The notes under the pieces were generated by a model. It made no database searches. It saw only the letters and a list, made by a program, of their open reading frames with translations, and had not been told where the DNA came from. Shown piece by piece: positions 3,785 to 50,500 of a stretch of 64,000 nt of DNA (position 1 is its first letter; the number at the start of each line of letters is the position of its first letter). The position numbers and the translations under genes were made by a program. The DNA comes from Octopus sinensis (Eukaryota), in assembly GCF_006345805.1 (NCBI RefSeq), contig NC_043003.1, positions 32,736,001-32,800,000 of the forward strand, in the 5' to 3' direction.

Positions 3785-5388
3785 TTTTTTGGGCTTTTGC
3801 TTTGTATTTGTACAAGTTGACTCCAAGTCTCACCCAGAGACCTCAAGAAACAACAAGTTAGAAGTTCAAGTTGGTGTTATAACTAAGGTGCCATATTTTA
3901 GGTTCTGCACAAAGTATTATTTGAATTCAGTTTTGCACAGAGTATTGTTCTAGAGAATGTCTGTCAAAACATAAGTAAATTAGAAGTTTGTTTTAAAAGT
4001 AATTTGATTGTAAGATGATAGTCTGATGTTAAGATGACAGTAAAAGGTATTTGCTGTTATGTACATTCAAAGTATTTTGACACTGTTTATGGATTTAACC
4101 CTTTTGTTACTGTATTTATTTTGAGATGCTTTGTGCTTCTTTCAATTACTATAAATATAACAAAGAATTTCGTAAAATGACTTGGTTATCATTCAGCTAG
4201 TATTAGGAACATAAATTGTGACTAAGTTTTGATGGAAGATTTTAATTCGAAACTTTTGAAAACAGGACATTTACTCAGAGCCGGGTTGGTAACGAAAGGG
4301 TTAAATAGTTTTGGGATTACATAGACAATATTTTACAAGGCGGTGAGCTAGCAGAAACATTAGCATGCCAGGTAAAATGCTTAGCGGTATTTCATCTGTC
4401 TTTACATTCTGAGTTCAAGATCCACTGAGGTTGACTTTGCCTTTCATCTTTTCAGGGTAGATAAATTAAGTACCAGTTGCATACTGGGGTTGATCTAATC
4501 AACTGGCCCCCTCCTCAAAAATTTTGGGCCTTGTGCCTAGCGTAGAAAAGAATATTTTACATAGGATATGGGCAGTTCCAATGAGCACTATATTTTTAAT
4601 TTCTTCTGTTTTTGGATTTCCTGGTATCTGAGCTAGGTAGCAATCAGCCCCTTTTACTATCATTCCTAGGGTGCCTATGACAACAGGTATTGTTTTAGTC
4701 TTGAGGTTCCACATTTTGCCAATTACCATTTCAAGATCTTTATACTTGCAGTTTTTGGTAGGTCTTGACATGCATTTATGTTGATTGGGACAGTTATATC
4801 AAGGAGGAGGCATGATTTTTGTCTGAAATCCTTCAATATAATGTCTGGCCTATTTGCATCTATCTTTCTGTCAGTTTGAACAGGGAAGTTCCAAAGGAGC
4901 GAGATGTGATCATTTTCAAGCACTGGTGGTGGTTTGTGTTCCCACCAGTTTTTATCATGGGGCAGGTCCAAGTCTTTCCAAATTACCCAGTGAATATACT
5001 GTGCTGCTCTACCATGCTTATAAAAATTCTCTTTAGTATGATGTTTTCTTGTTTTTATGCTTTAAGACAAGTTTTAACATCCAGTCATCAGAGTTTTTCA
5101 GGTAGGTGTTTAGGCTAATTGTGGCAATCTTCATTATTAATTCCAGTTGTAAAAGTGCATGGCCACCCTCTTTTCTTGACAGATAAAGTTGTTTTATATC
5201 TGCCCTAGGGTGGTGCATTCTATGCATTGTCAACAATTTTCATATTTTCTGTCAAGATTGCAGATTTTAGTAATTGACCAGTAGATCACGACTGATATGG
5301 TTAAAGTATTGATCTTTTCGATCCTGTTTCTTGCATTCAGCTCTGTCTTGAGTATTGCCCTTTAGCTACAATAACATTCTTTACTGAT
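3785..5388 (-). mobile_element. 5'-truncated R4/Dong-like non-LTR retrotransposon (restriction-like endonuclease), degenerate, with nested MITE and SINE
   Basis: Minus-strand peptides HPRADIKQLYLSRKEGG, YIHW..., LLWNFPVQTDRKIDANRPDIILKD...LDITVP and KYKDL...IPVVIGTLG (RLE PD..D motif). The 3'UTR ends in (TAA)n. The SINE at 4338-4550 is flanked by an 11-bp TSD aatattttaca. Confidence 0.85.
4095..4304. mobile_element. piggyBac-type TTAA MITE copy
   Basis: TTAA-CCCTTTTGTTAC...GTAACGAAAGGG-TTAA. Confidence 0.85.
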
Positions 5389-47571: not shown

Positions 47572-50500
47572 CTGTGTGTGTTGTTTGTATGTATGTGTGT
47601 GTTTGTATATGTGTGTGTGTGTGTGTTGTTCCAATGTGTTTTCTTATTGTAGTTTAAGAAGGTAGGTTATAAGAGAGATTTGGCTGCTATTTCTAGCAGA
47701 TCAAGCAACTATGTAGAACAAATGAGTGTGCTTTTATGTGGTCCCTAGAATTACAGGAAATAGCAGTTTATGTCCTTGTAACTTAGTGGGTTCATCTAAA
47801 GAGAATGACAAAGAACCAAGCTTATGAAGTATAAATACTAGGGTCAGTTTGTTTGACTAACCCTTTAAGGTTCTGCCCTAGCTTAGCTGCAGTCTGATGA
47901 CTTGAATAAATGAAAAATGAGTGCATATATGGTTGTGTTGGGAAGAAGTTCATTTCACAATGATGTGTGGCATCTTGCACATGAGTCTTCTACATTCCAC
48001 AATACTCATGGATCAACCAAAGACCTGTTAATGAAATGTAGTAAACAGAAACAGTGTGGAAGTTCCTTTCATGGAATATTCTTATTTTGAATGGTAAACT
48101 TAACTCATTAATTGGTTTAACTATTCTATATTGTTTTTGGTTGCTTTTAATGAGTTCACTCTGGTGTAATCCTTCACTCTAGATGTCCAGTGGAAGAATA
48201 ACCTCCTCTCCACTTCCTCTCCATCATGGAGGCCCTAAAACATGGCCTGACTGCTGCTTTTCCTTCTTTGGCTTAGCTAAAAAGCACCCATGCTGCTGCC
48301 ACATAAAAAGCACTTGTGCAAGTGCATGTAATCAGGACTCCTGCTGGTGCCACATAAAAGGCACCCAGTATGCTCTGTAACGTGGTTGGTGTTAGGAAGG
48401 GCATCAAGCTGTAGGAACCATGCTAAAACAGGCAATTGAAGCCTGGTGCAGCTCTCCGATTTTCCAGCTCCTGTCAAACTGTCTAACCCATGGAAACTGG
48501 AAGGTGAATGGTGATGATGATGACGATGGTGGTTTTATACTCTCAGAATTTTCAGTCGTATTTGTTACACAAGAACTGATAAGATAATGCCTCCCACATG
48601 GCAAAATATTTTGCACTGCATTGGTTGAACAGACTTGAGTCTGGCTTATTTCATGTGACAGAACCTCTCTCTAATTAGGACTTCTCTCTAATTTCTTCCT
48701 TTTTCTTCTCTTTCAGTGACTACTTGTCGAAAAGCCCTAACCATTGTCTTGTCATTCATATTTTTCACAAAACCTTTCACCATTCAGTAAGTGTTTTTTG
48801 CTTATATACTTGTTGGTTTCAGTCATTGAATTGTGACCATGCTGGGGCATTGCCTAGAAGTGTTTATTAGTCATTATGATCAACTTATTTTATTGATCTT
48901 AATATTTCAAATGGTTAAGGCAGTGAGCTGGCAGAATTGTTATCATTCCAGGCAAAATGCATAACAGCATTTCATCTACAGTTCTATATTTAAGAGATAA
49001 GGAATTTATGTACATTATATACATTCAATGGATATTTGTCCTCATCTTGTTTGTTGTTAACACAACGTTTTGGCTGATATACCCTCTAGCCTTCTTCAAG
49101 TGTCTTGGGGAAATTTCAAACCTGGGTTCTCATTCCTAAGGTATTTTGCCCATGGGCATATGGCATAGTGGTTAAAGGTGCAGGCTACTAACCCCAAGAT
49201 TCCGAGTTCGATTGCAAGCAGTGACCTGAACACTAACAATAATAATAATAGTAACATCGAAAAATACCTTAGGAATGAGAACCCAGGTTTGAAATTTCCT
49301 CAAGACACCTGATGAAGGCTGGAGGGTATATCAGCCAAAACGTATTAACAACAAACAAGATGAGGACAAATATCCATCGAATGTAAATAATGTAGCATTT
49401 CATCTGTCTTGATATTCTGAATTAAAATTCCACTGAGGTCCACTTTGCCTTTCATTTTTTCAGGGTTGATCAAATAAGCATCAGTTGAAAACTGGGGTGT
49501 TGGTAATCGGTTTGTTGGCCTTGTGCCAAAGTTTGAAACCAATATTTCAAATGGCTAAGTTATTGTTTGATATAAAGAAATCCAATTCAACAAGCTGTTT
49601 CACACCGGTATAAGACAGACAGCCACATATACAGATAAAAGTCAAATCTCTGCTGACCTCCAAATTAATATACATATGATATAAAAAAAGAAAAAATGTT
49701 CTCATTCTGACCATTGTCCTTTATTCATAACGTACTTAAGACTTCATTATCCAATGTGTTTTCTTATGGTAGTTTAAGAAGGTAGGTTATAAGATAGATT
49801 TGGTTGCTATTTCTAACAGATCAAACAACTATGTAGAACAAATGAGGGAGCTTTTATGTGGTTCCTAGAATTGTTGGAAATAGCAACCAAATCTCTCTTA
49901 AAGTATATTCTACTAGTCCAAAAAGGGAAGGACATATTGGTTAAGCTGATCCTAGATATGCAACACCCTAAGATAACAGCAAAGTGATCATGACGGGAAA
50001 ACTTTTTAATCATAGGTCTACTGAGTTAGTGCTGATCCCATTGTACTCAGCTCCTGTTTTATTTAGTCTCTAGTTCAATTTTCATTAAAGAGGTCTGTAG
50101 TTGACCATTTCAATCCCAATTTAATATTTCTTCATATTGGAACAAGCGCACATACTTGCATTTTATCAATCACTTTCCTGAAAAAAGAAAATACTAAATT
50201 TACTTTAGAAGGATTTGAACTCTGAACGTAATTGACTGTAACTACATACAACACATTTTGTCCAGTGCTCTCAACAAATCTGCCAAGCTACTATTGCTAT
50301 GATATTGGTTTCAAATTTTGGTACAAGGCCAGAAATTCAGGGAAGGGGTTAAGTCAATTACACTGACCCCAGTGCTCAACTGGTACTTATTTTATCAACC
50401 CCCAAAAGAATGAAAGGCAAAGTTAACCTTGGTGGTATTTGAACTCAGAATTTAAAGCCTGACAAAATGCCACTAAGCATTTGACTTGGCATAATAATAA

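Follow-up and report, generated by a model that had tools for sequence, protein, structure and literature searches.

The window analyzed here, a 64,000-bp stretch of Octopus sinensis contig NC_043003.1 (positions 32,736,001–32,800,000 of the forward strand; assembly GCF_006345805.1), contains at its positions 48966–49405 an insert made of two back-to-back end-pieces of a protein-coding Penelope-type retroelement. The pieces are copies of the element's pseudo-long terminal repeat (pLTR), which begins with a tRNA-derived head, a candidate promoter for RNA polymerase III (Pol III), and includes a minimal hammerhead ribozyme within the start of the coding sequence. Coordinates are those of the window, and features are on the plus strand unless the minus strand is indicated.

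The insert interrupts an unrelated host repeat, whose 5′ half (48917–48977) matches 4337–4397 and whose 3′ half (49397–49498) matches 4389–4490, where the repeat is present uninterrupted. A direct-repeat search identifies flanking 12-bp target-site duplications (48966–48977 and 49394–49405). A first-pass annotation made from the sequence alone had reported a 417-bp insert splitting another repeat between 11-bp duplications; the direct repeat is real and 417 bp do lie between the 11-bp copies, but the duplication includes one further A, which doubles as the last base of the element.

The left portion is inverted and begins with a 33-nt Penelope 'tail' (48978–49010, minus strand; codons ~41–52 of the element's open reading frame, ORF), which is found on this arm only and is recognized from the one-arm tail pattern among inverted pairings. 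It continues as an inverted, 5′-truncated pLTR copy corresponding to N-terminal coding sequence of the ORF (49011–49147, minus strand), identified through inverted repeats. The tRNA-derived head (49147–49230), defined by its sequence, by 5′-end mapping and by tRNA alignment, contains an A box (49161–49171), an anticodon-like CT-NNN-AA loop (49185–49191) and a B box (49206–49215). It is followed by an (AAT)n spacer (49231–49254) whose length differs between copies, and by the sense pLTR arm (49255–49394), in which an ATG at 49275 opens the ORF and the first 40 codons are present. The two arms pair at 49042–49147 with 49261–49366 (87%) and at 49011–49063 with 49342–49394 (94%). The sense arm stops at the upstream one of two 3′ ends used by the family; this end (arm positions 134–149; window 49385–49394) often has extra copies of a 9-nt unit, resembling telomerase-style slippage at the initiation of reverse transcription.

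Each arm contains a minimal type I hammerhead that is damaged relative to the family majority sequence. The antisense copy (49059–49104, minus strand) carries C3U, G12A and a stem II mismatch and has A at the polymorphic core position N7, and the sense copy (49304–49347), which lies within coding sequence, carries G12A and a 3-nt loss at the cleavage site and has T at N7. The two arms, the tRNA-like unit between them and the mutated state of both ribozymes had all been described correctly in the first-pass annotation.

The A box, loop and B box of the head are in exact tRNA register (T8, C32, G53), and the majority head aligned to 27 distinct host tRNA sequences scores z values of 4.0–9.2 against the shuffled head; the box register and these alignments are the basis for calling it tRNA-derived. 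In the window copy the B box has G at the invariant C61 (C61G), where the family majority has C. No A or B box was found in 28 control Penelope 3′ regions. Elsewhere in the genome, at least six tRNA-Cys-like genes are clustered within 3 kb (L167; G000:C12:22959503-22962574).

The parent Penelope element

Coding sequence lies upstream of the head in several of the 30 best DNA matches (L005 with the overlapping L018, L010, L015 and L029), and the unit is ordered as ORF end, head, (AAT)n, ATG, hammerhead, tail and ORF body. A reverse transcriptase (RT) domain (PF00078) is matched above cut-off on one copy (L061; E = 1.4e-10), whereas the 551-aa frame of a second, decayed copy (L125) matches no Pfam family. 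The element protein has 1665 homologues at E≤1e-20, the closest relatives (P0001–P0005) being 54–68% identical, and the majority frame is continuous over about 840 codons. Among 30 loci selected on the RT region, 20 run from the ORF into the head, a count that includes the query copy itself and two possible duplicates of a third locus; the remaining 10 end before reaching the head, and in none is the ORF linked to the arm with the head missing. The 33-nt tail continues directly into the ORF body in copies selected on the 5′ body of the ORF, and the reading frame from the arm ATG is continuous into that body; the N-terminus so defined is 45% identical over 127 aa to that of the homologue P0003, hammerhead codons included. 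Because the ORF runs into the head, the tail into the ORF body and the frame straight through from the arm ATG, the arm is the N-terminal coding sequence of the ORF and the head, (AAT)n, arm and tail together constitute the pLTR.

The C-terminus resembles a Penelope-like element (PLE) endonuclease by eye and aligns to the homologues, with no direct profile match on the copies. PF01541, which we take to be the GIY-YIG domain, is carried by 3 of 120 homologues among the matches listed. The putative assignment to the Poseidon type is based on this C-terminal endonuclease and on the lack of a zinc-finger linker noticeable by eye, in contrast to the second PLE family of the genome.

The family integrates in the manner of PLEs. 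From 170 loci, 86 inverted pairings were obtained after dropping 9 duplicates, some of the distant pairings being spurious. In 68 of the 86 only one arm has the tail and in none do both; exact target duplications of 9–17 bp (mode 12) flank 37 pairings. A pLTR or partial tandem, an inverted 5′-truncated arm and a 30–40-nt tail at one end make up the published PLE footprint (PMC8557442, PMC4209133), and each of these marks is present in the octopus family. The first-pass proposals that the insert has a Penelope-type footprint, was mobilised by a Penelope RT and endonuclease, and should have an autonomous PLE sharing its arm are borne out.

Several individual loci have further features. At L227/L228 (G000:C4:154068979-154072245) both arms of a head-to-head insertion extend 350–420 nt beyond the tail into the ORF body, and about 11 nt are common to the flanks and the element end, which hints at priming from internal microhomology. 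L005/L018 (G000:C6:89433078-89437388) contains nearly identical ~1.07-kb tandem repeats, each with an inverted arm and an ORF end with its pLTR. The same insertion and junction recur in four sets of loci (L215, L216, L219 and L220; L094/L097; L095/L096; L013/L030), which reflects segmental duplication or carriage in a larger repeat.

A second, much younger PLE family is present in the same genome (L241-L270, e.g. G000:C1:19868602-19871793; fragment at L188:1700-2700). It is Neptune-like, with 97–98% protein identity among the top copies, frames of up to 1008 aa, a Cys-rich linker before the endonuclease and a long (CA)-rich 3′ region, and neither a hammerhead word nor a B box was found in its majority sequence.

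Copy starts, T runs and the candidate Pol III promoter

The 5′ ends of copies were mapped at 87 loci taken in chromosome order with an arm word (89 fetched, 2 segmental duplicates dropped), giving 76 segments that cover the head. Of the 59 segments at risk at +7, 41 stop within −18 to +7 of the head start, with an end rate of 0.027/nt there against 0.001–0.002 upstream and 0.003–0.006 inside the head. Of 77 units that start at the head, 32 share exactly 8 nt with the ORF-side flank, and in 3 the match is longer. The edge is also present genome-wide, where CpG-free 21-mers fall 3.9-fold from 3847 matches inside the head to 976 just upstream. Of 30 loci selected on the 5′ body of the ORF, 5 reach the head of the upstream repeat; 3 start there and 2 come from further upstream, in tandems. 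From these sharp starts we infer a real RNA 5′ end 13–14 nt before the A box, which for the window copy places it near 49147–49154 on the plus strand. A type 2 Pol III promoter starts its RNA at about that distance. A start this sharp makes thousands of dead copies a map of the RNA ends of the element.

The coding strand is also poor in T runs. The majority sense strand contains no run of four T (T4) in head, arm, tail or ORF (about 2.8 kb); the 841 majority codons have no T4 or longer run where synonymous shuffles average 3.1 (P = 0.014), and a base-shuffle null gives P = 0.013. The controls are 79 Penelope-type loci from metagenome contigs, 73 of them with at least 900 matched nt, which collapse to 49 families. 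The 73 loci contain 538 such runs in 115,760 nt (4.65/kb) and none has zero, against 17 in 42,451 nt (0.40/kb) in 28 decayed copies of the octopus family, 16 of which have zero. None of the 49 control families is T4-free (median 4.0/kb; longest free stretch 1821 nt), and the Neptune-like family of the same genome has 4–5 T4 runs per 1780 nt in six of six copies.

On balance, then, we regard the insert as back-to-back pLTR copies of an autonomous Penelope/Poseidon-type element whose tRNA-derived A/B-box head is likely its Pol III promoter, a reading given slightly better than an even chance. The element is likely to be transcribed by Pol III because a tRNA-like stretch lies where most short copies begin and because the coding strand is T-run-poor; Pol III transcription had been suggested in the first-pass annotation, and the start position and T4 depletion indicate that it likely begins at the head. 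More tentatively, with a chance falling a little short of even, the whole 2.8-kb coding unit could be a Pol III transcript purged of T4 terminators, in which a captured tRNA gene replaced the Pol II promoter and which sheds thousands of SINE-like copies (resembling short interspersed nuclear elements) of the promoter repeat. In the main reading Pol III would start about 7–8 nt before the head's GGCATATGG in the upstream pLTR and, meeting no T4 terminator, would read through the ORF into the next repeat. By analogy with the PAc element of Anolis, the element's RT would start internally at either of two sites bounding the tail (ORF nt ~123 or ~154); copying of the first repeat would give abundant 250–290-nt SINE-like copies, and priming in the second repeat would produce copies with the ORF. 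The two ends left by a staggered cut of ~12 bp would each be extended and then joined head to head, yielding an inverted pair. The weak step is translation of an uncapped RNA. The element's protein might be supplied when Pol II reads through some copies. In viruses, cap-independent initiation can be promoted by ribozyme cleavage (PMC13725137), but with the cut lying inside the ORF such a route would need re-ligation to a circle.

If correct, this reading has wider implications. Pol III is as a rule confined to short RNAs that do not code for protein. Because Pol III RNA is short and uncapped, Pol II (or read-through by Pol I) is the expected polymerase of autonomous retrotransposons (PMC10886601); a Penelope with a tRNA promoter would break that rule and raise the question of how uncapped RNA is translated. 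It would also reveal a route to SINE origin in which the head and the signal recognized by RT are joined inside an autonomous element, a SINE caught at birth in its parent.

A number of observations weigh against Pol III transcription of the element. An imperfect hairpin (−10.8 kcal/mol) spans the head start (−18 to +11) and fold-back sequence is present in 26 of the 77 head-start units, so fold-back accounts for some of the sharpness of the edge at −8. No single parent tRNA is evident, with Cys, Arg, Ala and Thr scoring alike among the six isotypes sampled; ARAGORN predicts no tRNA gene in the window, and Rfam tRNA models do not match the head in the insert region or at five near-consensus loci. 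The copies are about 4.7% diverged from the majority, and no intact full-length copy is present among the loci examined. The T4 absence is less marked under other nulls (P = 0.053 on a shorter, 692-codon frame; P = 0.16 for a first-order Markov, dinucleotide null; a conservative predictive P of 0.059 for zero T4 in 2520 nt given overdispersed controls), Phe codons have no special avoidance of TTT, and since the signal comes from one lineage it supports Pol III read-through without being decisive or amounting to proof. The one PLE promoter that has been dissected, that of Drosophila virilis Penelope, resembles the TATA-less internal promoters of LINEs (long interspersed nuclear elements) and contains an intron (PMC2377424), and Kojima 2024 holds that autonomous partners must use Pol II (PMC10886601). 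RNA data from another species (three RNA-seq runs and one contig set against locus L132) have a step at the head start, where depth changes twofold for either direction; the two directions are equally deep and have no discrete starts or ends, and the step reflects copy number in host transcripts and is uninformative on Pol III. RNA reads at L132:2300-3100 have A>G and T>C differences in excess, some of which stem from changes in the reference copy itself, with A-to-I editing of inverted arms a possible further source.

The alternative that survives best, although we consider it unlikely, is that Pol III makes only short pLTR RNAs from the head while Pol II makes the ORF RNA, the lack of T4 being due to chance or to A-rich bias. 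These short RNAs would be the source of the SINE-like copies and might also act as a second template or as the partner of a hammerhead. It fits the same 5′-end evidence, the T4 P values are only 0.01–0.16, translation of a capped RNA needs no special mechanism (textbook knowledge), and many of the copies that start at the head and run into the ORF body end after 250–900 nt. Against it, the T4-free majority of about 2.8 kb exceeds the 1821-nt maximum of the control families, and there is no second 5′-end peak of the kind that would mark a Pol II start.

We give roughly half that weight to RNA starting at the head from an internal Pol II promoter, as in D. virilis Penelope, with the tRNA-like sequence as an old passenger. 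Known pLTR promoters are indeed internal and LINE-like (PMC2377424), and the head no longer folds as a tRNA. The start nevertheless lies 13–14 nt before an intact A box, the majority A and B boxes are in tRNA register, and this explanation offers no reason for the lack of T4.

The proposal of the first-pass annotation, an independent, self-propagating tRNA SINE with a borrowed Penelope terminal repeat, is slightly less probable again. In its favor, ORF sequence is missing from about 80% of the copies that bear the head (32 of 40 loci selected on the head; 1982 against 328 words), and the A and B boxes are kept in each short copy, leaving room for some self-propagation. The 40 loci are from the first 51 listed, the other 11 being already in other samples; 30 have the head with the arm, 7 the head and (AAT)n only and 3 are cut within the head, and 8 are ORF-linked (a script gave 10, two of which have no ORF sequence in the flank). 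None joins the head to another body, so that head and arm are inherited together, as the first-pass annotation had expected, and no free SINE with the same head and another body was found among them. The RT-selected and head-selected loci together rule out that a tRNA or SINE came to lie beside a pLTR by chance nesting. A separate non-autonomous lineage fused to a pLTR does not hold up, however: the head is fixed in the autonomous element, the arm is the ORF N-terminus, and the whole unit lies within that element, where a non-autonomous SINE would share only its tail with a partner. Two non-CpG polymorphisms were compared between short and ORF-linked units, with A at N7 in 18 of 74 against 5 of 30 and A at head +62 in 40 of 74 against 13 of 28; the two sorts of copies share alleles at similar frequency and the short ones have none of their own. 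Short copies end at ORF nt 123 or 154, and because they lack sequence beyond the tail, which PAc needs (it requires the first 172 nt of its ORF as template; PMC11167929), they may by analogy be dead ends unable to re-transpose. At the 89 position-selected loci, copies are mostly single or head-to-head and not in head-to-tail arrays.

Least probable of all is that there is no special RNA 5′ end and that truncated long Pol II transcripts pile up at the head-start palindrome through RT stalling or cDNA fold-back, which the hairpin and the fold-back units favor; a more stable control hairpin in the ORF (−13.0 kcal/mol) is accompanied by only a 1.1-fold change in CpG-free 21-mers (660 to 594), stalling predicts ends at the 3′ base of the hairpin (+9) where most lie at −8 to 0, and 51 of the 77 head-start units have no fold-back.

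Hammerhead ribozymes and known systems

The family hammerhead has the CUGANGA and GAAA core, helix II, a palindromic helix III and a NUH site, and the sequence that the first-pass annotation assembled by merging the two damaged arms is the family majority. Fully intact words are abundant, with 806 genomic matches to the 45-mer with T at N7 and 325 to the 41-mer with A at N7 (none for reversed-pattern controls), and a 29-nt arm word has 6109 exact matches in the 2.72-Gb genome. Covariance models, proposed in the first-pass annotation as a check, did not bear out either call: besides the tRNA models, Rfam hammerhead models gave no match on the insert region or the five near-consensus loci, only hairpin and miRNA noise. 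Motifs of the same build occur 17 times in the 79 control Penelope-type loci, with stem II different yet still pairing, and a hammerhead-like word is in 18 of the 28 control 3′ regions. Relatives in other organisms have N-terminal peptides that spell the hammerhead (P0003 residues 18–32, P0120 residues 2–14), and the implied codons of P0003, judged from protein only, suggest a compensatory stem II change.

There is no accumulation of 5′ ends at the hammerhead cut site (6 of 132; 0.0041/nt against 0.002–0.005), which leaves the idea of a ribozyme-processed element without support. Short deletions do cluster where cleavage is predicted; 34 of 197 units have one at this site, against no more than 7% for other 6-nt windows, and they occur on both haplotypes independently of divergence. 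The commonest deletion is what an RT jump over cleaved RNA would be expected to leave and may have arisen in that way; slippage between GT repeats gives the same product. For activity the ribozyme is predicted to require dimer formation or the assistance of protein, and insertion probably does not depend on it. The N7 allele is the same in both arms of 50 of 63 insertions (37.7 expected by chance) and differs in 13, including the window insert. Because arms of one insertion often differ in this way, the data suggest that a single insertion can be templated by two RNA molecules; recurrent mutation at N7 looks too rare to explain the differences (3 of 61 on the G haplotype). Both the allelic differences between arms and the clustered deletions bear on the mechanism of PLE insertion.

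Minimal PLE hammerheads have a short helix I, a longer helix II, an extra base between positions 9 and 10.1, a G10.1-C11.1 pair and a loopless palindromic helix III, and occur in opposite-strand pairs 100–700 bp apart (Cervera and de la Pena 2014, PMC4209133). The octopus ribozyme is no different from these known metazoan examples. The PAc hammerhead overlaps the beginning of the ORF; reverse transcription is initiated internally, at two sites on either side of the tail, both strands undergo extension, and elements with a mutated ribozyme are still able to insert (PMC11167929). The octopus element resembles PAc and D. virilis Penelope in having a single ORF with RT and, at its C-terminus, a putative GIY-YIG-type domain, a pLTR overlapping the ORF start, a hammerhead at that start, a 30–40-nt tail at one end, an inverted 5′-truncated arm and partial tandems (PMC11167929; PMC2377424). 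Unlike described Penelope/Poseidon elements, its pLTR has a tRNA-derived A/B-box head where copies start and its sense strand is free of T4.

The combination of a Pol III promoter with a type I hammerhead is already known from the Schistosoma SINE-like repeats Sm-alpha and Sj-alpha, dispersed retroelements in which the promoter precedes the ribozyme (PMC6765202) and which the first-pass annotation overlooked in stating that described retrozymes lack tRNA heads. Those repeats are non-coding, often tandem and liberated by cleavage, whereas in the octopus the unit forms an autonomous element's terminal repeat and the start of its coding sequence, with a minimal PLE hammerhead and no cleavage-defined ends. 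The TRIMp3 elements (Cassandra, Helenus, Ajax) likewise have a small-RNA-derived Pol III promoter in their terminal repeat, probably gained by insertion, and are non-autonomous LTR elements whose autonomous partners, in the author's expectation, would rely on Pol II and would not have the same LTR (Kojima 2024, PMC10886601). The octopus family does not have their two direct LTRs, primer-binding site, polypurine tract and non-autonomous character; the autonomous element itself bears the head, and the family has inverted arms, a Penelope tail and an ORF-bearing master. Animal non-LTR retrozymes, proposed or shown to be pLTR derivatives (PMC7761336, PMC7229834, bioRxiv 10.64898/2026.07.22.740005), are similarly short pLTR-related hammerhead repeats thought to be moved by PLEs, but they form head-to-tail tandems that give circular RNA, and the octopus copies are scattered as inverted pairs that have a tRNA head and are flanked by target duplications.

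The main text of bioRxiv 10.64898/2026.07.22.740005 does not contain the words 'tRNA', 'Pol III' or 'promoter', and the accessible portions of PMC6962438 and PMC13282606 hold nothing on the octopus pLTR family. A literature search, which lay outside most subscription journals, Dfam and Repbase, found no description of an autonomous PLE whose promoter is tRNA-derived or of a tRNA SINE mobilised by a PLE, so the family may be catalogued in Dfam or Repbase with this feature unnoticed. Since pLTR hammerheads, inverted arms and SINEs with Pol III promoter and hammerhead are all known, the novelty lies in an autonomous, protein-coding element with a tRNA head and not in a fused SINE.

To the right of the insert, the window contains a separate 111-nt imperfect inverted repeat (49790–49900) with 49-nt arms that are 78% complementary, resembling a miniature inverted-repeat transposable element.

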